A stretch of DNA of 54,743 bases, counting the filler, from Basidiobolus ranarum (lineage: Eukaryota): NCBI GenBank assembly GCA_040143965.1. It is 5 parts of 5 records of this genome, joined end to end, with 100 filler letters (N's around TTAATTAATTAA, not from the genome) between each part and the next. Parts side by side here need not be neighbours in the genome. Positions count along the whole stretch, not along the records: positions 43,889 to 54,743 come from JASJQH010000660.1; 4 more parts are not named here. The stretch is one strand, 5' to 3'. Below are positions 547-54,743 of this stretch, one piece after another. Each line of letters begins with the position of its first letter. Position 1 is the stretch's first letter. The translations under genes were made by a program, and so were the position numbers. The notes under the pieces are model-generated. The model had not been told where the DNA came from and ran no database searches. It was given only the letters and a program-made list of their open reading frames with translations.

Positions 547-1548
547 TCAGAACCAGTCGTTCCCACCAAGATGCCAAACTGCCACTTGTCTCACACCCAA
601 ATCCTCTACTAGCTTTCTTTTGATGTTCATTGATTCTCGATCGTTGCTCACGTACACCATGTCACCAACAGTCTTGATAATTTCACCAGAAGAATGATCA
701 CGTTGTCCACCATGATACCCATTCTGTTCTTTAATTTCTTCGAGAGTTAAATTCTTAGGTTCGTACCTATCCACCGTGGACAGGTATCCGTACGACGGTA
801 AACCAATCACTAAACGGTCATTGTGAAAAATCTTATTCATGTCGATAGTCCACCTTTTCAACCAAGCAAGTGGGCATATTGGCTGCCCACCGCCATAGTG
901 ACACTGATAGTCGTAGACCATAGGGGTAACATAGTCCACTGGAAGACTCACAAAATCCTCATATCTCCATCTCATTGGGGACTGCTTCGACGTCCACGCT
1001 GGGCCGCAGATCGCCAATTTCTTATTAATCTGCTTAAGTCTGGTTCCAAGCATGTAGATAAATTTTTTATAGATGTCGTAATCTTCATCACCCCACTCAC
1101 CATAACTCTCAAAGTCAATATCAATTCCGGTGAGTTGATATTCGGCAACAAAGTTGGTAAGTGTTGTAATGATTTCTGAAGATTTGTTCGTTTCAGCTAA
1201 GGCTCGAATTCCACATGTATGGCCTGCAACGGTGACTAGCTGTTCACTGGAGTATTTCTTCAGTTCTTGCACATTCTTCTCCGAAAAGCCGTTCTGCGTG
1301 TTAAACAGGTCGCTTGGATCCTCATCAACACGCTGAAGTATGCCAGTATCTAATAAATTAAAATATTGAACTCGAAGAACGTTGATCTCATTATTTTTAT
1401 ATGTGTCAGGAGCGTGTTGGCCAGGAGCACCATAATAAATCCATGCGTGTAATTTGGTAGATACTTCATTCGTCTTGATAGTTGTATCCCCTCTCTCACT
1501 ACTTGTTCGGTCCCGAAACAGTTTCAATAGTTTCTTTACTCTGGACAT
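547..1548 (-). CDS. Glycoside hydrolase family 18 (chitinase-like) protein, intronless, no signal peptide
   Basis: 333-aa ORF with catalytic DxDxE motif (LTGIDIDFE), 'VDYVTPMVYDY', 'LVIGLPSYGY' and C-terminal 'VAVWHLGG' typical of GH18 barrels. Paralogue of 6291..7280. Confidence 0.9.
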   Translation of the reverse strand: MSRVKKLLKLFRDRTSSERGDTTIKTNEVSTKLHAWIYYGAPGQHAPDTYKNNEINVLRVQYFNLLDTGILQRVDEDPSDLFNTQNGFSEKNVQELKKYSSEQLVTVAGHTCGIRALAETNKSSEIITTLTNFVAEYQLTGIDIDFESYGEWGDEDYDIYKKFIYMLGTRLKQINKKLAICGPAWTSKQSPMRWRYEDFVSLPVDYVTPMVYDYQCHYGGGQPICPLAWLKRWTIDMNKIFHNDRLVIGLPSYGYLSTVDRYEPKNLTLEEIKEQNGYHGGQRDHSSGEIIKTVGDMVYVSNDRESMNIKRKLVEDLGVRQVAVWHLGGNDWF

Positions 1549-4500
1549 GATTGCAAGTGCTCTACCTGTTGCTCTGTGTTAGATACAAGGTTGCTTTATA
1601 TTGGAAGTAAATATATCAGACCTCAGGCGGAAGGGAAACATTTCAGTCTTTTATGGTTAGATATATAGATTGGATATGGATCGTTTACTATCTATGACAT
1701 TGATTTATACTAATTGAACCAGTGTGATATGCGCCGTAGAAATAAGCTATAATTGGATTTTATATTAGGCTGATGTTCCTCGTAAAGATTCGTTTAGGGT
1801 GGATAAACGGCGGTTACGCCACAAATCCTCTCACTAACTATTACATAGAAATATTCCTAACTTGGATATATGTTAATTAGAATGCTTCTGTTGTCTGTGT
1901 ACTCTAATCTTGGCCCAACTATCCTATCTAGACAAATTTTTGTTTGGTAACTTGAACTAAATGTTGGAATTAAAAAATACCGTTTTAGGAAGCAGGCTGC
2001 TTGTTTCAGATTAGTCATTGATTTTAATGTGTTTTGGTATATCTCTGGGTCGTAGGCCCTAACTTTATAAAGAGAGTCATGGGCACCATCACTGACCTCA
2101 ATAATCTCGTATTGCCTAAAAAGCTTTTACAACCATACCATGGATACAACTTTCGGAAGCAAAATGAATTGATGTTTAGAAAGTTGCATAAACTTATTCT
2201 TGTTATCATAAATACAGCAGCAATAATAAATGAAATTGGTATCCACATCGAGCAATCCCGTGTGCTTCTTACCACCGCAGTGTTATTCTAATTAATGTGC
2301 CATATGTGTTCTATTTTAAGTTGGAGTACCTACATGTATCTATAGCGTAGATAGACATTTTTGTATAATTTTGTAACATACAAGCCTACTGTATCGACCA
2401 TCTCATGGTTAATAACTACTTGAATTGGAAGCTACATGTTCAGAAGGGTCATGAGAGCTCTCTGAACTTGGGATAAAATAACCATATCTTTGGCACAATT
2501 TTCTCATCGTGAATCCCAGAAATAATGATACTTTGCATAATAAATTACCGTGAGCATTTGCAAAGTAATTGCCCTGATTAAATTAACAAAGATTGTTTCA
2601 ACCCAAACTGTTAAGTAGGAAAACCTTAAATCTACAAAAAAAACCCTAATTATGTTAAGATTAACCCTGGACATGATTCAAAGGATTCTAAGCTTAACTT
2701 TAGTCAGCAAGCTATCACTAAAAAGACTTTTGCTAATCATTGAAATACAGCATTAAGCAAAAATTAACTTGTAGTTTAACTCTCTCAATATTTAGTTGCG
2801 TTAACAATCAATTCCCGTAAATGAACATTAATATGTAAGTTTAATGAAGTTCCAACATCTCTGTATTTAACATAGCATTGTTTAATTAACATAGCCTAAG
2901 CATCTATATAGCTATATATACCTCAGTATTTCGATATTCCATATTTCACTAAGACTATTACAATTCTCGAGACGGATTTACTCAGAAGTTTGAAGATACA
3001 TAAGTTTTGAGAGCTGGTCCTGGAAGCTCCAAACTTTGCACACATGTTCCTGGGACCTTCTTTGACACACTCTACCTGTTTGTTTGCTTACCGCTTGACA
3101 AAACTATAATTGGCAACTTTTTTCTCAATACATCAGAACCACCAGTGTGTGACTACCACCGATTCTTCTAGTTCTCCAAACAAACTCCCAAAATACTTCA
3201 TCTCATTAAACATAGCACACTGTCGATCATATCGCAAATAATGGATTCTGACATTTCGGTGATAAACCCATCACAAGCTGTGAAGGTAGGCACCGATTTT
3301 GAGCTAATAAATCCTCTATAATACTTTAAAACCCCTGTCTGATTACTGTTTAAGATATTCCGGAAACTTTCAGCACTATAGCCTTTGATGTTTCTTGGCT
3401 GCTTCTTTAGAGTTTAGTGTGCGAGCTTCTGTGTTAATTCTTATAATAGGTCAAAGATAGATTTCAGTTTTGAAAATCATCTGAATTTGCAAGAGGAACC
3501 TTTCCACAATTAAAGCCATTATTTTCTGTATAGTTGCAAAAAAATATGTAATGAGCTATTCATGGATGCAAGACTGCTCTTTATGCAGTTTCTTAAACTT
3601 AAACTTTAATAAAGGAAATTATATACATGTTTAAGAGCCATTACTGGTCAAGTAAATATTATGAAGGACTTGATATATTATTCTGGTAAAATCAACTACA
3701 TATATCTTAGCAGGGTGCATTTGAAAAAGCATCTCTGACAGCCTGAGGTATGGCATTCAACATGTTATATATACTGACTCATGCTTAAATGTATTGAATT
3801 CAGACACAATTATTCATTACACTCTCTATCATGACAAGCACCAAAGAATTCTGTGAAGTTAATATTGTTAGCTTTAATATTACTTGTTAATATTGACTTT
3901 AACCAGATGGATAAATTGTTTAAATTCTTAAATTTCCACTTTAATCATGGATTATAGAAACAAAAAGGACTTTTGATTCCTATCCCATATGTTGCACAGG
4001 CATAATCATTCGTTTACTTATCCCAAACTCCTATATTCATGTAGAGTATCTAACTACCAGAAGTGTAGGCAACATTGAATACTTGTCTTGCATTATATCG
4101 CATTTTCATCTAGTAAGAAATGAGCACATCAATGGTACACTTTGTATTATATAGAGGGTCCAAAAGTAGTTACTGGCAAATATAAAATTCAGATAAAAAG
4201 AGCTCAAAATTGATTTACTGACAATATCAAACATTGACTCATCTGCGGGTTGGATATAGGATTGAACCATCCAGTAAATACCGATATAATATACATTAAA
4301 ACATAGGATTTGCTCTTTCATATATGGAAATGGAACATTGAAGCATCAATACCAATGACGGCAATGTATGTTTAGCACTGCACTTGATTATCATGCAACA
4401 TCTCACCTAAAATAAGAACGCACCCTATGCACTTCCTTTAACGTCTTACAAGTGATATTTCTGGGTATCGTAGATACAACAACTGAATATAGGTAACATG

Positions 4501-6290
4501 GTACTCGTTCAATGATAAGCAGATCCTTTGTGACAGCATCATCCTAAAGAACTATCCAGCATATTCTCTAGAACCATTATGAATAAAAATAGACGAAAGA
4601 ACTTTCTTTATATGTGTGCCATTTGACCCCAATTTTCTCGAGCCTGGCAGCTTATAGATATCAAATGTATTTCCCACTAGTTGAATAGTATTGTCATTCT
4701 GACCGAGTATTTCTTTTATTTGAAAGGGCAATATGTATCCATGATACTTCTCACGACACACTTCTCCGGTAGAGTAATGAAGTAACTTATTTTTGGAACA
4801 CTTGGCAATAACCTACATTTAAAATTAAAGCCATATTATAGCATAAATGACATGCCTAGAGATATCTTCAGTTTATAGTTGTCCTCAGAGGCCATACCAG
4901 TTTGAGAAGATTTTAGCGATCTTCTTGCAATTGGTGGGGATGTGCTAAGTTTAGTAACTAGTACACCAACTAACATCATATATCCAGAGCGCTTGCTCAA
5001 AACCAATTTAGACCATTCTCTACATACAGGCACCATTTGGAATGTATTGAATAGTAATGGATAGCTTAAAGCCACATCCTATCCGTTACAATTATGGAAT
5101 GACAAATCAACTGTTATGATTATTACGTATGCTATGCGTCAGGATAAAATATTAACCTTAATGTCGATATTTAGTCATAGTTACTGCTCTTTTTATCACT
5201 GCAATGTACAGTACCGGGAGATCATAAAGCTCCAAAGGTTATGAAATCGCGTCGGACAATCCAGAAACTAACATCTCTTTTATCTAATAGTCAATCGATA
5301 TGAAGCATACGTGGTCATCTGCACTATGTTTCAAATAACCAGCCACAGTTACACAAATAACACACGTGGATGAAACATTGATGCGTTTGTTATCCATCGA
5401 GGCATTAGGTGTTTGTGGATGTAACTAACACATATCCTGAGTAATTCTTGAGTAAGCATTCCATTACTTCCTGTATTGTTGGATATCTTACCTCGTGTGA
5501 ATTTCCGTATATTTCTAGTAGTACTTTTCACTATCTAATTTCCGATGCTAATCAATACGAAAAACAGACCAGAAATTCTTAGCACTAGTAGCGCATCAAT
5601 GCACGTATAAAACTAGAATTAAATATCTTTGGGATGTTCTAGGTGCTTCAGAAATGGTTAGATCCGTCCACCATTGTCTCTATACATGTCACCGTGCTCC
5701 AACATGGTGCAATTTGTAGAACAAACGGGCCTGGCCTTGAGAACTTATTATAGTAGGATAAGCCTAAGATGCAGGTCGCAGTATAGGCTATAGAACTGAG
5801 GCATCTTAGCGAAGGATAAAGCTGCAGAATCTGTATCAACGTTCTTTTGAATGATCCATCTCCTGTTTATAGTGCAGCTAGTGATTAGAGAAGTGACAAG
5901 GCAGCCAACGACTAAAGGAATAGATTTCTGACCTCCGGTTTGTATCAACAGATGGACATTGAGCGCGTTCGAAAACGGTCTATACAGAAAGTTGGTGGTG
6001 AACAATCATGAGACGGGGAATAGGAGCGTGTAGATAAAAGGCCCTGGCATAGCTAAAGCTGTTAATAGAATTGGCCAATAAAATCCGCTTCTAGCTTAAT
6101 TTGGTACGAATTTACTAAGAGCATTCTTTAATTGGGCAAAAATATAGAGATCATTCCTTTAGACTGAATAACAACCCAAAAATTCAAGGAATATCTCTCA
6201 TCCAATCGTAACGCGTTGAGCATGGCATTAAAGCCTGTGCTAATGTGGGATTTACATAAATAACCGAAATGAAGTGGGTACTAAGTAATC

Positions 6291-7280
6291 ATGTTTGGAC
6301 TCTCAACAATCTCCGAGGCTTGGCCTCTTCCAGCTTTCAATTGGACATTAAATGCTATGCCATTAGTAGGTACAACTCCTACGAAACTCCAAGCGTGGAT
6401 TTACTACGGTGCGCCTGCACAAGAAGCTTCAAAAACCTACAAGAACAATGCAATCGATGTGCTGCGGGTCCAGTATTTCAACCTACTGGATAATGGAACT
6501 CTACGGCGTATTGATGAAGATCCCAAAAATCTATTTGACACGCAAAATGCTTTCTCGGAGAAGAATGTCAAGGAAATAAAGCATTACTCTAGTGAGCAGT
6601 TGGTGACCGTCTCGGGTCACATAAATGGGATGAGAGCAACTAATTATACTGAATTGGTTGGCGCACTTGTGAGTTTTGTAAAGGAGCACGAGCTGACTGG
6701 TATTGACATTGACTTTGAAAACTACAACAAGTGGACAGATAAAGACTACAAAGGCTACAAAGAATTCATATCCAATCTTGGGACGGAGCTCAAACAAGCT
6801 GACAAAAAATTAGCCATCTGCGGACCAATGTGGACGTCTGAAGAGTCGCCATTCAAGTGGCAGTACGCGGATTTCGTGGATCTGCCTGTCAACTATGTCA
6901 CCCCCATGGTATATGACTATCAATGGGATTATGGTGGTGGCTGGCCAATTTGCCCCCTTTCTTGGTTGAAGAAATGGGGCTTGATGATGCGCAATATTTT
7001 CAGCGATGAGCGACTAGTTATTGGGATACCGTCGTATGCCTATTCTGCGACCAGAGGCAAATTCAATATCAAGAATTTAACTCTGAAGCAGGTCAAGAAT
7101 CAGGGCGGTTATGCTGGAGCAAAACGGGATCCATCTTCGGCTGAAATGGTCAAATATGTTGGTAACAAGGTTTATGTTAGTAATGACAAACACTCCATGA
7201 ATGCCAAACGACAGGTGCTGGAGAGTGTAGGAATTAAACAAATATCTGTTTGGCATCTTGGTGGCAATGCCTGGTTCTAG
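6291..7280 (+). CDS. Glycoside hydrolase family 18 (chitinase-like) protein, intronless; probable original start at 6269 with frameshifted signal peptide
   Basis: 329-aa ORF with LTGIDIDFE, YVTPMVYDY, LVIGIPSYAY and ISVWHLGG. Colinear with 547..1548 along its whole length. Confidence 0.9.
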   Translation: MFGLSTISEAWPLPAFNWTLNAMPLVGTTPTKLQAWIYYGAPAQEASKTYKNNAIDVLRVQYFNLLDNGTLRRIDEDPKNLFDTQNAFSEKNVKEIKHYSSEQLVTVSGHINGMRATNYTELVGALVSFVKEHELTGIDIDFENYNKWTDKDYKGYKEFISNLGTELKQADKKLAICGPMWTSEESPFKWQYADFVDLPVNYVTPMVYDYQWDYGGGWPICPLSWLKKWGLMMRNIFSDERLVIGIPSYAYSATRGKFNIKNLTLKQVKNQGGYAGAKRDPSSAEMVKYVGNKVYVSNDKHSMNAKRQVLESVGIKQISVWHLGGNAWF

Positions 7281-10200: not shown

Positions 10201-10476
10201 TCTGATTATGCTAGTCATAGAGATGCTCGAATAAACAGTAAACTTCCCCACACACTCTTGGCACTCATTTGTCAAATTCTGACTAAAGATTTCCATGACA
10301 AACGCAATGAGGTAACGAGGCCTCTCGTTCAATGATTGGATGCAAAGTCATCTCCCTCTATGGGGATATACTAATAAACCTTAAGCAAACAAATCCTATA
10401 AAGCACCAGCAGAGCTCTTTATACAAACACCAACCACCTCGTTGATACAACTTGTGCTTTAAAATCAATCATCAAA

Positions 10477-10746
10477 ATGCATCCTTTTGCACCAGCGATT
10501 TTACTGGCAGTGTGCGCTACTCTTTCTCATGCCCAAGTATCGACACCCCAGCTAAACTCAACCGAAACTGTGGAGCCAACTCAGAGTACTTCTTCCGAAA
10601 CGCTTTCAAATTTGGAGACTTTCCCCACAATCATCGATTCCTTCCCTCCCACCATCACTTCCACAGTATCAGAACCAAGTCCTCCTGTAACCGATACCGC
10701 AGTCGTACCTAACAGTGGAAAAATTGCTAAACATCTGAAATTTTGA
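10477..10746 (+). CDS. Secreted Ser/Thr/Pro-rich protein, 5' part only, fused to a repeat at about 10709
   Basis: Signal peptide MHPFAPAILLAVCATLSHA followed by an S/T/P-rich stretch. The last 11 codons (NSGKIAKHLKF) come from the repeat shared with 53531-53701. Confidence 0.6.
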   Translation: MHPFAPAILLAVCATLSHAQVSTPQLNSTETVEPTQSTSSETLSNLETFPTIIDSFPPTITSTVSEPSPPVTDTAVVPNSGKIAKHLKF

Positions 10747-10879
10747 ATAGCACTGACACTTGGCAAATAGCTGACTCTTGTTACCATTCACAATGAGAAT
10801 AAGCTCTTGGATTTTGGCAAATTTCCGTAAAGAATTCAGCCAATATATCCCCAACTTGCAGTCAACAAATGTCCTGCCA
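10709..10879 (-). mobile_element. CACTA-family repeat fragment at contig end
   Basis: Near-identical (2 differences seen) to 53531-53701. Homologous to 44914-44951 joined to 45956-46090. Confidence 0.85.
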
Positions 10880-10979
10880 NNNNNNNNNNNNNNNNNNNNN
10901 NNNNNNNNNNNNNNNNNNNNNNNTTAATTAATTAANNNNNNNNNNNNNNNNNNNNNNNNNNNNNNNNNNNNNNNNNNNN
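10880..10979. other. Artificial contig linker
   Basis: 100-nt N run containing TTAATTAATTAA (stops in all six frames). Confidence 0.98.
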
Positions 10980-21856: not shown

Positions 21857-21956
21857 NNNNNNNNNNNNNNNNNNNNNNNNNNNNNNNNNNNNNNNNNNNN
21901 TTAATTAATTAANNNNNNNNNNNNNNNNNNNNNNNNNNNNNNNNNNNNNNNNNNNN
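21857..21956. other. Artificial contig linker
   Basis: N run with TTAATTAATTAA. Confidence 0.98.
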
Positions 21957-32827: not shown

Positions 32828-32927
32828 NNNNNNNNNNNNNNNNNNNNNNNNNNNNNNNNNNNNNNNNNNNNTTAATTAATTAANNNNNNNNNNNNNNNNN
32901 NNNNNNNNNNNNNNNNNNNNNNNNNNN
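32828..32927. other. Artificial contig linker
   Basis: N run with TTAATTAATTAA. Confidence 0.98.
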
Positions 32928-40765: not shown

Positions 40766-42103
40766 ATGAGTCCCAGCACCCAGGAAAGACAGCCTACAAG
40801 GAATCCTCTGATTTTCGCATGGAGGTTTATTTGCCGGATCAACATGACAATTTGGATCTTTGTTGCCATGGCCGTTGGCATCTTGGTAGGATGGTTAGCC
40901 CCTTCTTTTGCCAAAGAGCTCAAACCTGTCGCAAATATATTCATTACGATGATTAAATGTCTGATCGTCCCTTTGATTTTCGCCACTCTTTCAGTGGGTA
41001 TTGCTGGTCATGGTGATGATTTGAAGAGAATTGGTAGATTGGCTCTCAAATCCATCGTTTACTTCGAAGTTGTGACTACAATTGCTTTGGCTATTGGTCT
41101 CATCACCGTTAATGTACTGCGCCCTGGTGATGGAGTGGACCTCAAGGGGGCATCAACAGCTGAGGGTATAAAGTATGCCAACACTTCGATTACTGTTCAA
41201 GGCGTATTGGATCATATAATCACTGAGAGTTTCTTCAAGTCTGCCTCTGACAATACGGTTTTACAGATTGTCTTCTGCTCCATCATGTTTTCGCTTGGTA
41301 TGGTCAAAGCAACATCAACCGAATCCAGAGTAGTCATGCTCAAATGGCTCCAGAGTCTATCAGACATCATGTTCGCTGTCACTGGTTTAGTAATGAACTT
41401 TGCTCCCATCGGTATTGGAGCTTCCATGGCTTACACCGTTGGTAGCAGTGGTATTTCAGTCTTGGTCAATCTCGGAAAGTTAGTAGGTTCCCTGTATCTA
41501 GCCTTAATCATCTTCGTTCTCTTGGTGTTTGTTCCAGTTATGCTTCTCTGTCGCTTGCCAATTCGTGGATTCCTCCGCGCAGTTGGTCAGCCTGCTTTGG
41601 TAGCTTTCTCCACTGCTTCTTCTGAGGCAGCCCTTCCTAAGGCTATGGAAAATATGGAGGCCTTTGGTGTTCCAAAGAAGATTGTTGCTTTCGTGATGCC
41701 TACAGGATATTCATTCAATCTCGATGGATCTACTCTCTACCTGGCTATGGCATCTATCTTTGCCGCACAAGCTGGCGGTATCAGTATGCCCGTAGGTCAA
41801 CAGCTTTTGATGATGTTAACATTAATGCTGACATCGAAGGGTGTTGCCGCTGTTCCTCGTGCATCGCTTGTGATTCTTGCCGGAGCACTCAAATCCTTTG
41901 AATTACCTTTAGAGTCGGTTGCAGTTATTTTGGGTGTTGATGCACTTATGGACATGGGTCGTACCACTGTTAACTTGGTAGGCAATTGCTTAGCCACTGC
42001 AGTTATGGCCAAGTGGGAAGGCGAGTTTAGACAAGACCATATTCCTCACAACACAGATGAAGAGAAGAATGTTGAAAGCACCTATGAAAGCAAATCTCAC
42101 TAG
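40766..42103 (+). CDS. Dicarboxylate/amino acid:cation symporter (DAACS/SDF family, GltP/GltT-like), intronless
   Basis: 445-aa multi-TM ORF with 'AFSTASSEAALP', 'FVMPTGYSFNLDGSTLY', 'LMLTSKGVAAVPRASLV' and 'DMGRTTVNLVGN'. Confidence 0.93.
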   Translation: MSPSTQERQPTRNPLIFAWRFICRINMTIWIFVAMAVGILVGWLAPSFAKELKPVANIFITMIKCLIVPLIFATLSVGIAGHGDDLKRIGRLALKSIVYFEVVTTIALAIGLITVNVLRPGDGVDLKGASTAEGIKYANTSITVQGVLDHIITESFFKSASDNTVLQIVFCSIMFSLGMVKATSTESRVVMLKWLQSLSDIMFAVTGLVMNFAPIGIGASMAYTVGSSGISVLVNLGKLVGSLYLALIIFVLLVFVPVMLLCRLPIRGFLRAVGQPALVAFSTASSEAALPKAMENMEAFGVPKKIVAFVMPTGYSFNLDGSTLYLAMASIFAAQAGGISMPVGQQLLMMLTLMLTSKGVAAVPRASLVILAGALKSFELPLESVAVILGVDALMDMGRTTVNLVGNCLATAVMAKWEGEFRQDHIPHNTDEEKNVESTYESKSH

Positions 42104-43788: not shown

Positions 43789-43888
43789 NNNNNNNNNNNN
43801 NNNNNNNNNNNNNNNNNNNNNNNNNNNNNNNNTTAATTAATTAANNNNNNNNNNNNNNNNNNNNNNNNNNNNNNNNNNNNNNNNNNNN
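43789..43888. other. Artificial contig linker
   Basis: N run with TTAATTAATTAA. Confidence 0.98.
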
Positions 43889-44170
43889 AGAGGCATGCAC
43901 CATTTGTAAGATATGAGAAGACTATGGCTGATTTGGCATATGTTGGGGAAGAATGCAGAAGGCTAGGATGTGTCACTGCTAACAAGAGGCCCAGAGGAGA
44001 GATACTCACAGAGAGGCAAAAGCTCTATAATGACATTTTTTCCCATTTTAGAGCAAGTGTAGAACATAGCTTTGGTTTCCTAAAGTGATATAGCATTGTA
44101 GCAGGAAAGTATTGAGGAAAATCATTTTGTGGGCCTCAATCAAAGTTATGCAATGTAGTCAAAATCTAGA
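43889..44170 (+). mobile_element. PIF/Harbinger-ISL2EU (IS5-like, DDE_Tnp_4) transposase C-terminal remnant
   Basis: Manual translation from 43891: ...MADLAYVGE...KRPRGEILTERQKLYNDIFSHFRASVEHSFGFLK*YSI. This matches the family pattern 'D.xY...LT..Q..YN...S..R..VEH.FG.LK'. Confidence 0.8.
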
Positions 44171-44948
44171 TTAATTCTCAATTCATTCACACTCAAAGAT
44201 ATCCATAGAGAGCTCTAGACTGAAGACACCATGAATAAAGCATTCATCATCTTTTGAATGTGCAATAATGTCTAAAAGTACTTTTCTTAAATATATCATA
44301 TAAGTAAAGTAAACTGTTTCCAAAATGGAAAATAACATTGTGGCAGATAGTGCCCAATCATGCCAATTTGTGCTGGCACAATTTTTAGCTGGCCTGATCT
44401 GGCTCAATAAAATGGAAGAAGTTTAATGAGAATCAAAAAATCCAAGAACCTTGTTTTATATAGTTTCTACATATTCACACACTAGATAGATTAGACATAA
44501 CTCAACAACTGCAATATGCTTTACCAGCAAACTTTTTCAACTTTATTTTCTTGTCTATATTCGTTATGTCTATCTTTGTACACCTAGCTATTTTATATAT
44601 CACATATAAGTAAGTTAAGATTACTTAGTAAAATACCACTTGACTGCAAATTGGAACATATATTATATATATAGGTTATTAATGTTAGAATTAGCAATTC
44701 CATATTGGAATTTTCAAACTTGTGAAAATTGCCCCAAAGATGGCTCATTCTACTTGCCCAGATATTCTCAACACAATCCCATTGTTAGTTTCCTGTAGTT
44801 CCACTAAAATATATAAATGCTTCATTTCTGGCCAATAAATAAGTATCTAACAAAGCTATTCAGAACTTCGCTTTTCTAAAGTTCCTCCAAGTAGCCTATA
44901 TTTTCTCAATAAAACTATGGGTGGAGAAATTGCTAAACATCTGAAATT

Positions 44949-45185
44949 TTGGACAATCCTACCACTAGTCCATTAGTTTCTATTCATAGACTAGCTGCCA
45001 AGGAAGAACTGGAATATATACATCAAAAACACATACTTGTAAATACATTGCCAAAGTTATTAACCACCAATATTATTTGCAGATGGCATGGGTTTAAAGT
45101 TGGAGATATAATCACAGTTGAGCATCACAATGGTAATCTATCAACAATAGTTACTATGGTAAACATGTTTTACTTACCAAGGTAA
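44949..45185 (+). pseudogene. RNA polymerase RPB5 C-terminal domain-like remnant, intronless, highly divergent
   Basis: DNPTTSPLVSIHRLAAKEE...NTLPKLLTTNIICRWHGFKVGDIITVE matches the residues and spacing of the RPB5/RpoH consensus N.T.H.LVP.H....KEE...LP.I...DP..R..G.K.G.(V/I)(V/I).I.R. The upstream part has stops and a frameshift. Confidence 0.75.
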
Positions 45186-45230
45186 GCTTTTAGATCAACC
45201 TTTTTTAACATCACCAATTGACATAATATT

Positions 45231-45398
45231 ATGTTACGGGATTTTATTGTGCCCCTAAACTGCATACAATGCAATATGTCAATAGGATCTGTACAAATAG
45301 AAATAACTACAATTAAATATATTAGTTTACAAAATTTGCATTGTGCCTCTAAAATAATGTTAATAGGATTTATACAAAAGATAAACAGTCAGAATTAA
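45231..45398 (+). pseudogene. RNA polymerase RPB10/RpoN-like small ORF (55 aa), degenerate
   Basis: Manual translation MLRDFIVPLNCIQCNMSIGSV...ISLQNLHCASKIMLIGF... resembles the RPB10 pattern IIP.RC..C...IG ... GL.RYCC..ML. The distal CC pair is reduced to one Cys. Confidence 0.5.
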
Positions 45399-45441
45399 CT
45401 CCTATTATAACAGTTGGTATGGCAACAAATTATTATTACCC

Positions 45442-45505
45442 AAGAATGTTACAGTGACAAACTCTAATTACATAAGAATGTTACAGTGACAATCTCTAAT
45501 TACAG
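45442..45505. repeat. Tandem repeat, 2 x 32 bp
   Basis: aagaatgttacagtgacaa(a/t)ctctaattaca(t/g) occurs twice. Confidence 0.9.
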
Positions 45506-45530
45506 AAAGATATTACTTTATACAAATTAC

Positions 45531-45668
45531 TAAACAAGGTTGATCTTAGATGCCTAAAGACCTCTTTACAAATCTATAAAATAAACAAGGTTGATCTTAG
45601 ATCCTATAGACCTCTTTACAAATCTATAAAATAAACTAGGTTCATCTTAAATGACTATTGACCTCTTT
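45531..45668. repeat. Tandem repeat, about 2.7 x 50-51 bp
   Basis: taaacaaggttgatcttagat...gacctctttacaaatctataaaa units start at 45531, 45582 and 45632. Confidence 0.9.
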
Positions 45669-47780
45669 GCTTTATTAACCAAAGGGAATATGTATTAGGT
45701 ATTAGATAATATTTAATCAATGGAACAACTCCTTCTGATTTTGCAACTAGTGTGTAAATCTCATTGGATATTATATCCAAATGGTCAACTAGTACCATGT
45801 TGCAAGTAGCAATGTAAATAGTTTCTTTTGAAAGTTTGGTGTCAGAAAAAGATCTTACATAAAATTTTTCTACTTGAGATGTTGGCTTGTCTTCAAGAGC
45901 AGATTCTTCTGGAAAAGTATTTTTGGAAACTTGTTTGCCAAAAGATTGATATTCTGAATAGCACTGAAACTTGGCAAATAGCTGACTCTTGTTACCATTC
46001 ATAATGAGAATAAGGTCTTTGATTTTGGAAATTTTTGTAAAGAATTCAGCCAAAATATCCCCAACTTCCAGTCAACAAATTTCCTGCCACAAGTAGATGT
46101 GTCATTGCTTGAATAGATTACCCCATGCCCATAATGCTAACACTATATATCTTGATCTAACTCACTAAGAAGTCTGTCTTGCAACTTTCCTAGAAATACT
46201 ATCATATTATCACACAAATAAATTGGTTCAAATTAAAGGAGGGGTTTGTTGCTGTTGTTGCTCTCACACAATGTATAGACCTATGAGCACATTGAAAAGA
46301 GCCCCATGTTGAAAGGATACTAGAGTCTGGAGTCTCCTGAACCCATCACATTACATCTAAAACCGGTTTTGCTGTAACATTGTTAATCAGATTAGCAACA
46401 GTAGTACTGACAACTTTGCATGGAGAATCATTTCACCCCCAGTGTACTGCATTGGGAACTCCCAGAATGTATAGCAAGGGCCTATAATCTCTAAGCTTTG
46501 TGAAACATGCAGCAGGGAGTGTATTGAGTATTGGCATATATTGAGTCTATCATTTTTGAACCTATTTCAAAGTTCTTCATTTGAAACTACATAATCTCTG
46601 CACAGTTGCTGTATTTGCCTGCAATCTGCCAATGTGTGTTGAAGCTGGAAAGATATAATGACAATATCCACAAACAACTTCCAATGTTGCCAATAATTAT
46701 CAAGCAGAAATCTTTTGAAGATTCTGCTTGAATATATACCGATCCAATTTTTCCAGTCTTTGTGTTTAAAGAAATACCTAGATGAGTGGATACTGATGGG
46801 AGTCCTGGCAAAATATGATGGTATCTTGACATTTTCAAACATTTTCCAAATTGATTCAAACTTTGATCCTATCTTGAATGGCTCATTCATATTGAATTTT
46901 GCACTAAATAGCTGAGTTAGTAGTATTGAAATGTTGTGGAATAGTAAGTGCATAGTGCCTAAAGGGAAGCTCTGGCTCCAGCTTATCCCCTTTAGCAATA
47001 TAATCACAGGCTTACGGCTAATATCAAGTTTGATGTTAGACTGACTATTTGGTGAATTGATATCAGTGATCATGTTGAAATCTGACCAGGCTCTTGATGG
47101 TAAAATCATGGAGTTTAGTGTTATATTTGGATAGTAGTAATGTGTGTGCCTGCTAGTGTAAACTCCATTGATTTGACAAAATCTACCGCAATATAGTACA
47201 TTGTGCCCACAAAAACCTCAAAGTTTACTGCTGGCAGGAGTCTCACCAATAAATACAATGATATTAGCTTTAATAAAATATTCACCCATCTGAACCCCAT
47301 TAGATAACAATTCAAATTCTGCAATCATAGGCTGCAAGAAGCTATCTATAAGCACTGGTGATTTAGGTCCAGAAATGATGGATATTATCAAAATATTCTG
47401 ACTCTTATTCCATACAGAAGGAGGAAAATTTAAGTTAATCAAGATTATTGGCCAGCTAGCCATTCCAATGTTGTATTTATTTTGTGAGAAACCATTCAGA
47501 TCCAATGCAAATGCATGATTATAGATGTTCTCAAAGAAACCTTCACTTTTCAGATTCTGGTAGTGCTATTTTTAAGGTATATTAGTTTTAGCATTGGCAT
47601 TTTGGTGAGTACTTCTGTATTGAATCAATTATCTATATTTGGGTCATTTCATCAAAACCTTAGGATAGGGAATCAACAGTATGTAAGATAAATATGAAAA
47701 ATATTTATCTGATTCAGCAATTACCAATTGTGTGCAAACAGTTCCTGACTTCCGGTTTTTCAGATCACCAGTGAAAGCCA

Positions 47781-48036
47781 TGTTAAATTAGGTAAATAGC
47801 AACTTATTATTTAGTGGTTAGTTTATTCATATTCTGATCATTTAGCACTCAATACTGTCATTGAAAAATATGTGCTGATTGCCCTAATTGATAGAAATGG
47901 CAAGTAGATCACTTTAGCAAATTTCACTATTTTCCCAAAACCTCTTTAAATCACCTCAAATTTTCACCTATGCTTAACAGGCATGTTTGCTATGATCTAA
48001 GCATGTCCAATAGTCCTATTTCATAGTAAACTATAA
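47781..48036 (+). repeat. Copia 5' LTR, 3'-truncated
   Basis: Direct repeat of 51730 to about 51985 starting TGTT, roughly 80% identical by eye. Similarity ends near 48036, where sequence runs directly into mid-gag. Confidence 0.85.
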
Positions 48037-49043
48037 TCAAGATCAGTGCCATAAATAATGGAATATGTTGGTACTAGGCTTTTGAATGTGGAATTAAGGA
48101 GACCTAATTCTCAGCAAAATAATGCAGAACAGGCATTTTTTGGAGCTGTAAAATATCTAACAGGCTTCAGTAATGGTGCCCCTAATAGTAAATCAATCAT
48201 CTGCAAGTACTGCAAGAAAGCAGGTTATACTATCAAAGATTGCAGAAAAAAGATTTTTGCCAAAAAGCTAAAATTGGACAAAGCAAATCAAGTACACACT
48301 GATAGGGATCATCTATTTCTGTCAACCCTATCACTAACCACTAAAGAAGACTTAGAAACATGGTACATTGATTCAGGAGCTTCCCAGTATATGTCAAACA
48401 GGAAAGATTGGTTTTCCAGCTTAAAACCAATCCAAACAAGGAAAGTCTACTTAGGTGATGACTGTGCACTAGATGCAGTTGGCAATGGCTCAGTTGTACT
48501 CAATTTAGACCAAAATTCAGCTATAATATCTGCAAATTTGGGTGATGTACTCAATGTACCAAATATAGCCAAGAATCTACTCTCAGTAGGCCTAGCAACA
48601 ATTCAAGGATTTAATTTTGTGTTCACTCAGGCTGGATGCACTTTCACAGATCAAAATAATACCTGATTTAGCTACTAGGAACTAAACTCAAAACTTTTAC
48701 AAGTTTGAAATCAACAAGTTACACGATGAGAATGCAAGCTTGGCCAATACCAGTAGATAAGCTGCCAAATGTGGCATAGAAGATTAAGCCACATTGGGGA
48801 ACAGAAACTGAACCAAATGATCCAATAGCAGCTTGTTTCAGGCTTTGAAATTGGAAATATCACTAAATTAGATCTGTGTGAAGGTTGCATATATTGAAAA
48901 CATCATAGATAGCCATTTTCAAGCTCTAGGGAGATCAAATCCACTCAGAAATTTGCCCTGACTCATTCTGATCTATGTGGGCCCATGGTACATATCTCAC
49001 TAGGTGGGAAAAGGTAATGTATGCCCTCTATTGATGACATAAC

Positions 49044-49325
49044 TGGTGAAAGTCTGGTGACTTGTGATACAAGTAGTTATTCCTAAAGGGGAAAACATGG
49101 AGTATGGTGACTATATCTGAACACATAGTCAAAGGCCAATCAGTTGCTGGTATAGCTGAAATACCAAAGTACCATATATTGACAGACAGGGTTAAGGTAC
49201 CTTGGCATTATAGGCATAGCATACAAGCACTGGTAGCTGAGTGGTCAGAGCACCTTGCTAGAGTGAAGGATGTCACAGGTTCAAATCCTGGCTAGACCAA
49301 TATTTCTCCCTAAATGATTTCAACA
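49044..49325. mobile_element. 282-bp solo-LTR-like insertion within the Copia integrase
   Basis: Interrupts integrase between 'IDD' and 'KYT*VFFLKSKSE'. Ends are TGGTGAAA...TTTCAACA (7/8 inverted match, TG..CA). Flanks ataac/ttaag are a possible decayed TSD. Confidence 0.7.
49227..49299 (+). tRNA. tRNA-like sequence/pseudogene (73 nt; anticodon position reads AGA but variable loop is short)
   Basis: A-box TAGCTGAGTGG and B-box GGTTCAAATCC. Acceptor gcactgg/ctagacc (5/7 pairs), D stem gct/agc, anticodon stem cctt/aagg with 7-nt loop ctagagt, T stem cagg/cctg. Confidence 0.75.
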
Positions 49326-51729
49326 TTAAGAAAATATACTTGAGTATTCTTTCTCAAATCAAAATCTGAAGCCTTAGCTACATTCAAGCACTATGAAGCA
49401 ATGGTAGAGAAAGAATCAGCACCAAAAGTAAGGGTACTAAGGAGTGATAATGGTGAAGAATACTGTTCTAAAGACTGTACTAGTTTTTGTTCTCAGCATG
49501 GAATTAAGCAACAAACTACTGTACCTCGTACTCAACAGCAAAATGGAGTTGCAAAAAATGTTCACAGAACCATAGTGGAGATGGCAAGATCATGTAGCAT
49601 GATCAAAAGTTAGACTACCAATAATGAGCTGAATCTGTCTCCACTGCATTTTATAACAAGAACAGATGCTCAGCAAAATTGCTACAAAACTCTACTCCAT
49701 TTGAAGCCCTATATGGATCAAAATCAAGTGTGGATCATCTCAGGATCTTTGGTTGCATAGCATATTGCCTTATTCCAACTCAAAAATGCTCTAAATTGGA
49801 GCCCAGAAGCAGAAATAGCATACTGTTTGGTTACTGTGATGGATCTAAAGCCTACAGACTGTCTGATACCAAAGATCAGAAGTTGTTCAAGTGCATGGAT
49901 GTGCTTTTTGATGGAAAAGCAATTCTTCCACCTCAAATCACAGTTCTTGATCCAGAAAGCAATATCAGCACTATTCAGGAAGTGTCTGAAAAAATTCCAG
50001 CTGTATCTGAGTCCTATTTAACCAAAATTCCAGTCCTAATTAAAACAAATGATGATTCAGGACCCAGATGATCATCCAGAAGGAGTAATAAGCCAGGAAA
50101 CTGGTGGAACACTTCCAACAGTGATGTATATGCTTATGCAGCATTTTGTGACAAGCCACAGACTCTAGATCAAGCTATGAAGTGTCCAGAATCAAAATTA
50201 TGGGGAAAAGCAATGTCAGATGAGTTTTCTTCACTTCTGGACAATAAACCGTGGGTTTTAAGTCCTCTACTATCAGGGAGAGAGCCAATAGGTTACCAAT
50301 GGGTCTACAAAGTCCAAAACTAGGCTGATGAAACCTCAGAAAGATACAAAACAACAGTAGTTCAAAAGGCTATTCCCAGACTCCAGGGGTTGATTCTAAT
50401 GAAACTTTTGCTCCTGTAGCTAAGTTTAGCTCCATTAGAGCAATCCTGGCACTCTTGGCCATTCATAACCTAGATTTACATTGAATCAATGTAAAACAAC
50501 CTTTTTGAATGAAACTTTAGAAGAAGAGATATATATGGAGCAACCAGATTGATTTGTTGACCCAAAACATCCTGATATGGTCTGTAAACTTATAAAATTG
50601 CAATATGGGCTCAAGCAAGAACCAATTGTATGGTACAACAAGGAATATACCTATTTCAAATCACTAGAATTCCAAAAATGCACAGCAGATCCCAGTATTT
50701 ACATCAAAACAACTGGAAATAGGATCCTTATCTTTGCCCTATATGGGGATGACTTAATCATAGCCACAAATGATCTAGAAGCACTTAATTAGACAAAAAG
50801 TAACTTATAAACTAATCTCAGATGACTGATATGGGTGAATTAAGTTATTTTCTTGGAATTCAAATCAAGAGAGAGAAACCCTATCAGAAAATCATGCTGA
50901 GGTGGTCTAGATACTTCCTAGACATCCCAAAGTGCCTAAACATGGAGAATAGCAAGCCTGTATCAACACCAATGGATATCAATGTGAAATTAATCCTAAT
51001 TTCATCCAATTTGGCCCTAATGACTTAAATCAAAGCCAGGAGTTACCTTATCAAAGCATGGTGGGCAGTTTAATGAATACAATGGTTTGAACATATCCAG
51101 ACATTGCAGTGGCAGTGGGAAATATAAACTAATATCTCAAATTTCAGGATCTGAGCACAAAATTGCAGTAAAATTAATATTCAGGTATTTGAGAGGAACT
51201 ATAGGTCTAGTTCTGGAATACTTTGCAACTCCTGGTGCACAAGACTTCAAAGTCTACAGTGATGCAGACTGGGGAAGAAACCTTGATGATAGAAGATCAA
51301 CAACTGGATACACTTCTCTCTATGGTAATTGAGCCATAACTTGGAATAGTAAGAAGCACCACCATAGCACTTTTCAATACAGAAGCAGCACATATGGCTG
51401 CCCCTGCTACTACACAAGAAGCTATGTGGTTAAGAAAGCTATTGACAGACTTAGGATACATGCAAAAATGTGCTATTACTGTATTTGAAGATAATCAAAG
51501 TTGCATTTCATTAACTAAAACCCTACATTTCATGTTAGAAAAAGCACATAGATATTATGAATCATTTTGTTAGAGAAGCAATGGAGAATGATATAATTGA
51601 GCTTGTCAATTGCTCTACTAAAGAAATGATTGCTGATATCTTAACCAAACCTTTAGCTAAAGTACAATTTGAACTATAAAGATATAAGTTAGGTTTGGGA
51701 GAAATACAAAATAGTTAGTTAAGTGGGAA

Positions 51730-52079
51730 TGTTGAAATTAGGTAAATAGCAACTTATTATTTAGTAGTTAGTTTATTTGTATTTCAATCATTTGGCACTC
51801 AATTCTGTAATTAAGAAATGTGTTTTTTTGCTCTAATTGATAGAACTATCAATGCAATGACTTTTACCAATTTTCACTATTTTCTCAGCACTTCTCTAAA
51901 TCATCTCAATAATCACCCATGCTTGACAGGCATGTTTGTTATGATCTAACCACATCCAATGATTCCATTAGATAGTAATCTATAAATAGAAGGTATTCAA
52001 TTCAATAAAACATAAGTGTCAAATTCACAAATCCATATCTTGTCCAAAACACTTCCAGGTCCCCTAAACACTTTTATCA
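51730..52079 (+). repeat. Copia 3' LTR (350 bp)
   Basis: Preceded by purine tract aagtgggaa (51721-51729). Runs TGTTG...TATCA and contains TATAAATA (51981) and AATAAA (52004). Confidence 0.85.
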
Positions 52080-53158
52080 AGCTAAACAACCATTTGGACA
52101 TTAATGTAATTTAATACTGAAGGATTATCAGTCATGCAATTGACAAGTGTTTTCCACTTTTATCAGGCTGGTGGTAAGCAACACTTGCTAATCAAATGTG
52201 GCAAAAGTGTAAGAAAACCAATAAGCACTGGTTGCCAAGATTTGCTTGAACTCTTCACTCCTCAATAGTTAGAGCGGCTTCACCTACTATAAGTGTTATA
52301 AGTGGACTATTGCTTGCTAATAACAAAGAGTCTGCAAGAAAGCTGCTGTCTTCTTCTTCAACTTCTGATATGTTATCATCAGTACTGGTATAACCAAGGT
52401 CAACATCTAGCAGCATGTCTGCAAAATTGTCTGGACTTAATGGTTTGACCAAGGTTGCATTTATACCTACATCAATCTGGTGATATAACTGTGGTAACTC
52501 CATGGTATCTTGACTTTTGGCAGCATCACCATAAATTTGAGGCCAAGAACAGCCAGTGGACTCATTGGGCAAAGCTAAAGTCAATCTTGAGCACCTATTA
52601 ATGTTAACATTCACTAGGCTTTTTGCAGCTGGTGGCTTTCTACAGTGACCATGCTTTTGATTATTTTTTTTATGAAGCCTGTGGCTTTCATAGCACAAGA
52701 ATTTGTGAGAATAATAGCCAGGCTTCTTTAAACATTTGTGCTGCAGCATCACAAGGATATTGTAGAAAGAAGAACACCTTCTATGGAAGGGTGGTATTTT
52801 AGCATAGCCTATCAATACTATGAGCTTATTCTGACACAGTGAGATGGTGTCACAGATGAGCCATCAGGGGATTTACAAGATTTTTTGGTAATGGATGGCA
52901 ATTTTGGTTTATTATAAGCTGTTTCTAAGCAATTTCATTACGCCATGTTTACCATCTGAAAATTGCAACACCATTCAGAAAGCATGCAAATTCCAAGTCC
53001 AAATTGGCTTCCAAGACAAAGCCTGCAGGTATGAAAGGAAAAAAATCAGCAAGAACAGAGGACTTCATTGATGGGCAGACTAGCAATTCACTATCCACTT
53101 TGTAACCTAACAAAAATAAAATCGATTAGATCCACATTGGATCCACCCTCCAAAAGAG

Positions 53159-53247
53159 TAAAACCATCAGAGAACCATCACAATATCAGTAGCTTGCATT
53201 CTGCCAGTGATTTTGATGGTGTGACAATGGTTTCTTGATGGTATTTA
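53159..53247. repeat. Imperfect inverted repeat built from ACCATC motifs, likely CACTA subterminal region
   Basis: taaaaccatcagagaaccatcacaatatca versus the reverse complement of 53214-53247 (taaataccatcaagaaaccattgtcacaccatca). Confidence 0.6.
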
Positions 53248-53423
53248 ACAGTATTCATACATGTTAAAATATTGATTCTCAAATTGGCATGCATTATTCA
53301 ATATCAGGCATTTTATGCAAATATACAATTTTTGAAGGACAAATTACCGGGTTTACTGTGGTAGGAATTCAATTTAATATGCATGCCTTTATTTAGATAT
53401 TTTAGGCTTTGTATTTGAGCCTT

Positions 53424-54743
53424 AATGAGAATCAAAAAATACAAGAATCATGTTGTGTTTAGTCTCTACATATGTACATACTGGACTGATTAGACATAAC
53501 TCAACAACATCAATATGCTTTACCAGCAAACTAACGGTGGAAAAATTGCTAAACATCTGAAGTTTTGAATAGCACTGACACTTGGCAAATAGCTGACTCT
53601 TGTTACCATTCACAATGAGAATAAGCTCTTGGATTTTGGCAAATTTCCGTAAAGAATTCAGCCAATATATCCCCAACTTGCAGTCAACAAATGTCCTGCC
53701 ACAAGTAGAGGTGTCATTGCTGGAATTGATGACCCTATGGCTAAAACAATAATACTGTGTATCTTGATCTATCTCACCTAGAAGTCTGTCTTACAGCTTT
53801 CCTAAAAGTACCATCAAGTTATCACACAAGCAAATTAGTCTGGATATAGAGGAACTTACTCTGAGTCCATGCATTGGGCTTTGTTGCGGTTATTGTGCTC
53901 AAACAATGCAAAAACCCATGAGCACATTGCAAAGAGCCCTTTGTTGGCAGGTTAATATACTCTGGAGTCTCCTTAACCCATCACATTACATCCATCACTG
54001 ATTTAGCTGATACATTATTAATCAGATTAGCATACAGTAATACTGATAATTTCACACGGAGCATCATGTCACCACAGGTGCACTCCATTGGGAACTCCCA
54101 GAATGCATAGCAAGGGCCTGTAATCTCTAAGCATTGTGAAAGAAGCCGCAGGGAATTTATTGAATACCAGCATAGATTCAGTCTATCTTCTTCAAACCTG
54201 TAAGAAAGTTTTTCATATCCAATTACAAAATCTTTGCACAGTCACTGTATCTGGCTGAGATCTGCCAATGTGAGTTGATGCCGTAAGAATATATTAACAA
54301 TATCCACAAACAACTCCCTATGTTGCCAATATATATCAGGCCAGAATCTTTTCCAAATTCCACTTAAATATATACAAATCTAATACTTCCAGTCTTTGCA
54401 TGTGAATAAATGCCAAGATGAGTGGATATTGATGGGAGTCCTGGCAAAATATGATGGTATCTTTATGTTTTCAAATATTTTCTCAATTGATTCAAACTTT
54501 GATCCTATCTTGAATGGCTCATTCATATTGAATTTTCCACTATATAGCTGAGTAAGTGGTATTTGAATGTTGTTGAATAGTAAGTGCATAGTGCCTAAAG
54601 GGAAGCTCTGAGTCCAGCTGATCCCCTTTAGCAATATAATCTTAGGCTTATGGCTAATACTAAGTTTGATGTTAGACTGACTATTTGGTGAATTGATAGG
54701 AGTGACCAGGTTGAAATCTGACCAGGCTCTTGATGGTTAAATC
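53424..54743 (-). mobile_element. Second CACTA copy (internally deleted derivative), running off the window end
   Basis: Colinear with 44425-44533, 44914-44951 and 45956-47107. Includes the ORF fragment 'LKGISWTQSFPLGTMHLLFNN' (54380..54634). Confidence 0.9.

Follow-up and report, generated by a model that had tools for sequence, protein, structure and literature searches.

A decayed RPB5 fragment, probably of giant-virus type, nested in a Tnp2-type transposon copy of Basidiobolus ranarum

We analyzed a 54,743-nucleotide stretch of DNA (the window) from the fungus Basidiobolus ranarum (assembly GCA_040143965.1), in which five parts of five records were joined end to end; the part of main interest, positions 43,889 to 54,743, came from record JASJQH010000660.1. 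An open reading frame (ORF) on the plus strand of this part, at positions 44937-45185, encoded the C-terminal domain of the RNA polymerase subunit RPB5. The results suggested that this ORF is probably a dead remnant of an RPB5 gene of the type carried by nucleocytoplasmic large DNA viruses (NCLDVs), nested in an EnSpm-type transposon copy in a Basidiobolus genome. The ORF was homologous to RPB5, distant from canonical RPB5, truncated, depleted of CpG dinucleotides, and nested in the transposon copy of a host from this genus, and we infer for it a viral source, a mechanism of capture, and a lack of function.

The frame at 44937-45185 (+) spanned 82 codons from stop to stop and was translated as TSEILDNPTTSPLVSIHRLAAKEELEYIHQKHILVNTLPKLLTTNIICRWHGFKVGDIITVEHHNGNLSTIVTMVNMFYLPR, which agreed with the RPB5 C-terminal pattern quoted in a preliminary description of this DNA. 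The Pfam family RNA_pol_Rpb5_C (PF01191) aligned at profile positions 7-64 of 73 with residues 12-68 of the ORF (E=1.6e-4), and the score of 21.8 bits, which did not reach the gathering score of 23.5, was by itself marginal for a 54.7-kb window. When 1,835,955,588 representative proteins were searched with phmmer, 32 proteins matched the ORF at E<=1e-3, and the top match had an E value of 8.9e-11 and 43% identity. RPB5-like proteins that aligned across the whole domain made up 31 of the 32 matches, and one match, a 1118-aa repeat protein (P0016), was set aside. All 10 of the top matches contained PF01191 at E<1e-4, and 9 of these 10 were over the gathering score. A profile of the relatives of the ORF matched solved RPB5 chains (E=2.9e-33) and the RPB5 homologue of African swine fever virus (ASFV; E=2.5e-14). 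A hidden Markov model (HMM) of 33 relatives gave the ORF 86.9 bits, compared to 7.2 bits for the second-best of 1765 window ORFs, in a test that was partly circular. A word-index protein search with a 33-row alignment returned four proteins, three of which were known already, and the ESM Atlas indicated RPB5_C clusters at values (0.88-0.89) under the Atlas reliability line.

Similar results were observed when the fold was modeled. The AlphaFold2 (AF2) model of the ORF, which was generated from a 34-row alignment and leaned on the RPB5 relatives in it, had a mean predicted local distance difference test (pLDDT) value of 88.5. In a PDB fold search with this model, the best 48 matches were all RPB5/RpoH chains, with TM (query) values of 0.60-0.76. 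In BFVD, 25 fold matches were found at E<=1e-3, and nearly all of them were named NCLDV RPB5 proteins. Judged from the database searches and the predicted structure, the RPB5 C-terminal domain in this ORF is genuine and has an RpoH-like alpha/beta fold.

The RPB5 frame was 5'-truncated, with the C-terminal RpoH-like domain alone surviving, and appeared to be dead. A stop codon was located right before the frame (44934-44936), no ATG was present before residue 74, and the family HMM detected no N-terminal RPB5 homology in the upstream frames. Among five nearly invariant columns of the family, H17 was kept and the other four were changed (D45 to N, I61 to V, R63 to H, and R70 to T); the invariant P39 was retained. 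Relative to canonical RPB5 and archaeal RpoH, the fragment was therefore altered in four of five nearly invariant columns and had neither the N-terminal domain nor a start codon, and the loss of these parts and of conserved D and R residues (D45N, R63H, and R70T) suggested that it is not functional. The GC content of the ORF was 0.33, and its CpG observed/expected ratio was 0.00, compared to 0.04 in the 1-kb surroundings, 0.02-0.13 in the neighboring transposons, and 0.74 in the portion of the window with host genes; the sequence was thus AT-rich and decayed, as had been described. The codons behind the D-to-N change (AAT after C) and the R-to-H change (CAT) would be the outcome expected of CpG-to-CpA decay.

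The preliminary description had placed the RPB5 ORF next to a CACTA transposase. A transposase remnant was indeed located nearby at 46567-47565 (-), where two same-frame ORFs were split by a single stop. The upstream ORF, at 47218-47565 (-), matched PF02992 (Transposase_21, or Tnp2) with an E value of 3.1e-12 and a score of 46.6 bits (cut-off, 28.6), and PF02992 is listed as a CMC domain (PMC5751038). What had not been foreseen was that the RPB5 piece lay inside the transposon repeat. The window contained a Tnp2/EnSpm-type repeat body (copy 1; 45952-47107, -) in common with 53563-54743 (82.6% identity); a second copy (53422-54743, -) that ran off the window; and a fragment of a third copy (10715-10879) that was cut by a block of N's. 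To the left of the body of copy 1, a 111-bp unit (44423-44533) was common to 53422-53532 (86.5% identity), and a 40-bp repeat piece (44912-44951) corresponded to 53528-53567 (90%) and, from 44921, to 10715-10745 (97%).

These pieces of copy 1 were separated by two extra segments. One, a 1,005-bp segment at 44952-45956, was absent from the two other repeat copies, and the other, a 383-bp segment at 44534-44916 with a GC content of 0.294, was absent from copy 2. Because 44423-44533, 44912-44951, and 45952-47107 were collinear and contiguous in copy 2 (53422-54743), and 44921-44951 and 45947-46089 were contiguous in copy 3 (10715-10879), which showed the same empty junction, we concluded that the two segments were present in copy 1 alone. 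The 383-bp segment was flanked by a perfect 5-bp direct repeat (AAACT, at 44529-44533 and 44912-44916), and the 1,005-bp segment was flanked by an imperfect one (TTTTG at 44947-44951 and TTCTG at 45952-45956). At the left junction of the 1,005-bp segment, the repeat was followed by GACAATCC..., and at the right junction, ...GATATTCTG was followed by AATAGC. Within the transposon copy, this segment began about 35 bp into the shared sequence; it held the RPB5 ORF as well as a short downstream ORF that had been described as RPB10-like, and RPB5 homology began no more than 15 bp from its left junction. Its composition (GC, 0.299; TpA/ApT, 1.01; [CpA+TpG]/[ApC+GpT], 1.17) fell outside the ranges obtained when the three flanking transposon bodies were scanned in 45 sliding 1-kb windows (0.334-0.393, 0.65-0.91, and 1.44-1.85, respectively). 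Whether by insertion or by deletion, the RPB5 piece is enclosed by the repeat and is more than a neighbor of it.

The fragment falls in a divergent, short-form group of RPB5 proteins, recognizable by CRW and by a shortened loop ahead of the last YxR, that is found on giant-virus-like contigs, in NCLDV-like insertions of the moss Physcomitrium, and on many metagenome contigs. Because the RPB5 remnant was located in a 1,005-bp AT-rich segment that two sister copies lack, we propose that, most likely, a Tnp2 (CMC/EnSpm, "CACTA"-type) transposon copy acquired a small piece of endogenised viral DNA, either by capturing it or as the target of its insertion. The fragment would have been silenced and mutated together with this transposon copy, with loss of CpG, and would now be without function.

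The events may also have occurred in a different order, a reading that we consider well worth entertaining, even if it stops short of being probable. The long copy would be ancestral, the RPB5 fragment would have been carried in it as a Pack-CACTA-style capture, and copies 2 and 3 would be internal-deletion derivatives produced by abortive gap repair; the source of the fragment would still be a viral-type RPB5. Both missing segments were bounded by the 5-bp direct repeats noted above (AAACT/AAACT and TTTTG/TTCTG). Microhomology deletions usually leave such repeats behind, and the repeats fit a deletion of this kind in the sister copies as well as they fit insertion. Moreover, a 138-codon ORF on the minus strand (45655-46071) spanned the right junction of the 1,005-bp segment and stayed open for 98 codons from the shared part into the segment, a run that has a probability of about 4e-4 in random 31% GC DNA according to our base-composition estimate. 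Pack-CACTA capture is also documented in plants, according to the accessible part of one report (PMC6379663). In contrast, the 1,005-bp segment was unlike every 1-kb window of the transposon bodies in composition, RPB5 homology started at the junction, as it would in an acquired block, and three copies only were visible, with no termini identified.

The minus-strand ORF itself could not be linked to a known protein in the searches made: it matched no Pfam family at E<0.05, no PDB sequence, and no relative in the word index. The 98-codon part in the segment had no viral-contig relative and no PDB match, and the single-sequence AF2 model of the ORF was unusable (pLDDT, 35).

Parallels to Pack-CACTA elements and EnSpm transduplication were apparent from the portions of the literature available to us (PMC6379663 and PMC8903248): a foreign gene fragment was located between parts of a Tnp2-type element, and Transposase_21 and DDE_Tnp_4 remnants adjoined it. 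Unlike in those systems, CACTA termini or a 3-bp target duplication were not identified here, and the captured piece would be viral instead of host derived. A more speculative and rather doubtful version is that the 1,005-bp segment is a giant-virus snippet with two convergent gene ends that was transduplicated by EnSpm. The plus strand would then hold the C terminus of RPB5 and the minus strand a 98-codon C terminus of unknown nature, with a repeat-rich spacer between the two. If this were true, fungal DNA transposons would shuffle endogenised giant-virus fragments and disperse them genome-wide, in a Pack-CACTA-like process that acts on viral instead of host genes, and apparent counts of viral integrations would be inflated or scattered.

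The assignment of the fragment to a group of RPB5 proteins was examined with phmmer scores, motifs, and a tree. Solved archaeal, human, plant, and Schizosaccharomyces pombe RPB5/RpoH proteins scored 12.5-19.4 bits each against the ORF, budding-yeast RPB5 was absent from the PDB phmmer matches even at E<=10, and five archaeal RpoH proteins scored 3.6-11.9 bits. Members of the divergent short-form group scored 35-57 bits, a margin of 20-40 bits over canonical and archaeal RPB5; the top relatives scored 57.3 (P0001), 53.1, 51.0, 46.2, and 45.0 bits, the last being a moss copy, and the copy on a viral contig scored 38.2 bits. The fragment has the fold and domain of canonical RPB5 and archaeal RpoH (PF01191; eukaryotic N terminus, PF03871), to which it was 17-26% identical in structural alignments. 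With 12.5-19.4 bits against solved RPB5/RpoH and 35-57 bits against the divergent group, the fragment is too distant from canonical cellular RPB5 to have arisen from it as a retrocopy, and, on these scores, the RPB5 of the fungus itself was not its source. The same argument had been made for an RPB5-RPB10 pair; it held for RPB5, and an RPB10 was not supported.

The short-form relatives were mostly 140-200 residues long, and the canonical N-terminal domain PF03871 was found in 0 of the 10 top matches. They were marked by W where canonical RPB5 has Y (CRW, RRW, or CKW) and by a loop about five residues shorter ahead of the terminal YxR. Both marks were present in the window ORF, in the RPB5 of the IMG/VR contig L001, and in the moss proteins, and neither was present in the archaeal proteins or in the microsporidian protein P0026. 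A maximum-likelihood tree was generated from 39 of 51 assembled rows and 81 columns, after 12 near-duplicates were dropped (P0034, P0035, P0036, P0158, P0160-P0165, and the rpoH sequences of L010 and L011). The outgroup was archaeal and consisted of three (L007-L009) of five rpoH loci found when genome contigs were searched with P0159. The window RPB5 was placed in a 32-row group with L001 and the moss copies (support, 82/83), in a tree that comprised neither canonical fungal nor named NCLDV sequences; the sequences outside this group were those of the archaea and the microsporidian, together with three metagenome proteins of canonical appearance. The RPB5 of a giant-virus metagenome-assembled genome (MAG) contig, L017, was of the canonical type, with N and C domains, scored 26.4 bits against the window ORF, and was of no help in placing it. 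The RPB2 gene of this contig (12429-17666, -) was interrupted by an intein (Intein_splicing, E=5.3e-15).

The link to viruses came from the relatives of the fragment and from published work. L001 is a 51.7-kb contig whose short-form RPB5 belonged to the subgroup of P0007, P0009, P0010, and P0014. The neighbors of this RPB5 formed a dense array that included a 662-aa protein with an mRNA-cap guanine-N7 methyltransferase domain, an 852-aa DEAD/ResIII helicase, an ATP-dependent DNA ligase, and a lysozyme, genes such as a large cytoplasmic DNA virus carries. The lysozyme gene of L001 (5876-6868, +) was of the phage type, with a peptidoglycan-binding domain, and was located between a Pfam-less ORF and the helicase gene, near the capping-enzyme and RPB5 genes.

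Two proteins of the moss Physcomitrium patens (P0006 and P0033) matched the window ORF with an E value of 6.9e-7 and 39% identity and scored only 39 bits against Arabidopsis NRPB5. The accessible part of a study of this moss (formerly Physcomitrella; Maumus et al. 2014, PMC4083422) lists 17 copies of an NCLDV-like RPB5, and P0006 and P0033 are presumably among them. The moss group and the window ORF have in common the W for the canonical Y and the short loop; the moss group differs in its CKW motif, its ...NEVYYR ending, and its own starred clade, which did not contain the window row.

There is also a precedent in the host genus. According to the accessible text of Gong, Zhang & Han 2020 (PMC7017919), 14 fungi, Basidiobolus meristosporus and B. 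heterosporus among them, carry endogenous NCLDV-like "fundsalphavirus" elements, which have six genes in common, RPB5 being one. The same text reports pseudogenised copies with stops and frameshifts, retrotransposon sequences nearby, and the placement of the moss NCLDV-like sequences inside the fundsalphavirus group. Insofar as these elements are described there, the window fragment resembles them in the host genus Basidiobolus, the RPB5 gene, the decay, the transposons close by, and the moss relatives. It differs in that one domain of about 250 bp is left, no adjacent viral gene was found, and a DNA transposon encloses what remains. The fragment was embedded in host DNA, with ordinary eukaryotic genes in the same window, and was decayed, with truncation and a CpG observed/expected ratio of 0.00. 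Several co-located viral hallmark genes, as expected of an endogenous NCLDV element, were not seen in the window; the ORFs near the RPB5 fragment matched no viral Pfam family, and no HMM search aimed at hallmark genes (MCP, PolB, A32, and VLTF3) was made. The giant-virus relic of the preliminary description was partly supported by the relatives on L001, the moss copies, and the Basidiobolus precedent, as far as that source goes (PMC7017919), and was reduced in extent to one detectable viral-type fragment.

Several results weighed against a nested viral remnant. Besides the 5-bp direct repeats at both segments, the open minus-strand frame across the junction, and the Pfam score below the gathering threshold, these results concerned the relatives of the RPB5 ORF and its surroundings. 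The five nearest relatives (P0001-P0005) were located on unlabelled metagenome or read-assembly contigs without usable context, and therefore the viral label rests on the L001 contig group, the moss copies, and the literature. Searches of viral contigs with A4, A6, P0001, and P0003 yielded no genomic context for the nearest relatives, and a search with A6 yielded only P0002's own 1,083-bp contig among metagenome contigs and nothing among genome contigs. In a tblastn comparison of the L001 proteins to the window, RPB5 alone matched (E=4e-10); the next best match had an E value of 0.45, and 0 of the other 9 proteins matched. In the tree, which was made without a canonical Basidiobolus RPB5, the branching around the window row within its 32-row group was not resolved, and none of the starred clades contained it. 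Named isolate-type NCLDV RPB5 proteins in BFVD (Foldseek rows at E<=1e-3) were 13-26% identical to the ORF and hence no closer than cellular ones (17-26%). Finally, a cellular RPB5, the microsporidian RPAB1 P0026, was among the 32 matches, with 36.8 bits. Another relative was annotated in a bacterial MAG. To our knowledge, RPB5 is absent from bacteria; because of this, the relative is probably on a mis-binned contig.

Some of these results would fit a history without a virus, in which the fragment is a divergent cellular RPB5 paralogue, fungal or from another eukaryote, that was captured by the transposon. The microsporidian protein (1 of 32 matches), the unlabelled majority of the relatives, and the low identity to named NCLDV RPB5 proteins are all consistent with this idea. 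Against it, the ORF scored 12.5-19.4 bits with solved cellular RPB5/RpoH and 38-57 bits with the short-form group, a member of that group was located on a densely packed, virus-labelled contig, and NCLDV RPB5 has already been published for Basidiobolus. We therefore regard a purely cellular origin as improbable and retain the NCLDV-type remnant as our preferred reading.

The fossil adds one example to a phenomenon already published for Basidiobolus and, on its own, changes little. Possible transposon capture of viral DNA is a mildly new angle. The case indicates that very short, CpG-eroded viral fragments can be recognised by an exhaustive protein search where curated profiles narrowly fail. 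If the same junctions recurred at other places in the genome, this would mean that viral fragments are being spread by transposons, which would be relevant to counting and dating giant-virus integrations in fungi.

The preliminary description had paired the RPB5 ORF with a 55-aa RPB10-like ORF on the same strand and had proposed that the two may be a piece of a viral transcription module. The second ORF was present at 45222-45398 (+), about 45 nt past the RPB5 stop; it spanned 58 codons from stop to stop, 55 from the first Met, and its beginning read ...IVPLNCIQCNMSIG. Its likeness to RPB10/RpoN (PF01194) consisted of this [IV]P..C..C start and the small size, and homology was not supported. 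No Pfam family, RNA_pol_N included, and no PDB sequence matched at E<=10, and the ESM Atlas gave nothing usable. An HMM of four archaeal RpoN proteins, out of genes fetched from five genomes, scored the ORF at 2.1 bits, which ranked 41st of 1440 scored window ORFs. The CxxC was followed by a single later Cys, and the CC pair that was present in 5 of 5 fetched RpoN proteins was missing. The motif [ILVM][ILV]P[ILV].C..C.{3}[ILV]G occurred once in the window, compared to 0.003 expected per simulated window, but this pattern was written after the ORF had been seen and is biased in its favor.

The surroundings of the 45222-45398 ORF looked more like repeat architecture than like a gene. The ORF was flanked by a 25-nt arm (45183-45207) and by three tandem inverted copies of it (45531-45668). 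These copies belonged to tandem repeats at 45425-45668 (two units of 32 nt and three of about 50 nt), whose units were inverted copies of 45183-45207. The unit TAAACAAGGTTGATCT... was the inverted complement of this 25-nt stretch, which directly followed the RPB5 stop, and the inverted and tandem repeats around the ORF formed a foldback- or MITE-like arrangement. The ORF is most likely a chance frame. The idea of two genuine genes, RPB5 and RPB10, that lie side by side as part of a viral transcription module drew on the shared strand, the spacing of about 45 nt, and the rare start motif. At the level of detectable homology, it was largely refuted by the missing profile and database signals, the missing CC pair, and the position of the ORF between inverted and tandem repeat units. 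In addition, a ligase instead of RPB10 was located downstream of RPB5 on L001, and a single viral-type fragment was all that the L001 proteins detected in the window. We consider such a module very unlikely.

That the RPB5 resemblance itself arose by chance in AT-rich junk DNA can practically be dismissed because of the library-wide statistics (E=8.9e-11, with 31 of 32 matches RPB5-like and aligned over the whole domain), even though the Pfam score was under its threshold and the ORF also drew spurious summed matches to TAL-effector repeats in PDB in which no single stretch passed.

Those PDB phmmer rows, of the TAL-effector type (29 of 45) or BurrH (2 of 45), had 0 passing stretches and were rejected as summed repeat artefacts. 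They involved residues 37-77 of the RPB5 ORF, at no more than 6.8 bits per repeat in the alignments shown, which summed to E values down to 8.6e-20. Two PDB phmmer rows for ribosomal S4, at E values of about 0.5, were also discarded. Four IMG/VR loci (L002-L005) matched residues 3-32 of the RPB5 ORF alone and were judged to be seed artefacts; in L003, a phage-like contig that encodes large tail-type proteins, the match was intergenic.

Other mobile elements were found around the repeat. A Copia-type long terminal repeat (LTR) retrotransposon at 47780-51985 (+) was nested in or beside the repeat and contained Pol_BBD (E=1.1e-22) and SH3_retrovirus (E=2.8e-22) domains; its LTRs (47780-48036 and 51729-51985) were 80% identical. 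No inverted partner of the left-end sequences of the Tnp2-type element was found within the window, in which the element was LTR-interrupted and copy 2 ran off the end. A fragment of a PIF/Harbinger-type DDE transposase was located at 43837-44088 (+), where it was cut by a block of N's (DDE_Tnp_4, E=2.8e-5, 24.3 bits; cut-off, 24.8).

The N blocks, at 10880-10979, 21857-21956, 32828-32927, and 43789-43888, each consisted of 44 N's, 12 bases, and 44 N's, occurred about every 10,970 bases, and were not biological. One of them cut the Harbinger-type ORF, at a distance of about 1 kb upstream from the RPB5 finding, one cut an HSP70-like ORF, and one cut the third repeat copy. A Ser/Thr/Pro-rich ORF at 10402-10746 (+), with a signal-peptide-like hydrophobic stretch after the Met, read into copy 3 of the Tnp2-type repeat, and its last residues, ...GKIAKHLKF, were repeat sequence.

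Elsewhere in the window, two divergently oriented paralogous ORFs, at 547-1578 (-) and 6285-7280 (+), were located about 5 kb apart. The former matched GH18 chitinase (E=2.4e-11), and the latter was visibly similar. An intronless gene at 40766-42103 (+) encoded a 445-aa sodium:dicarboxylate symporter that was 86% identical to a B. meristosporus protein and 57-68% identical to its B. ranarum paralogues, which pointed to Basidiobolus as the host genus. Beyond the Basidiobolus paralogues, its nearest relatives were bacterial, many of them labelled Gemmatimonadota, at about 64% identity, and it looks like a bacterial gene that was acquired and expanded in Basidiobolus.

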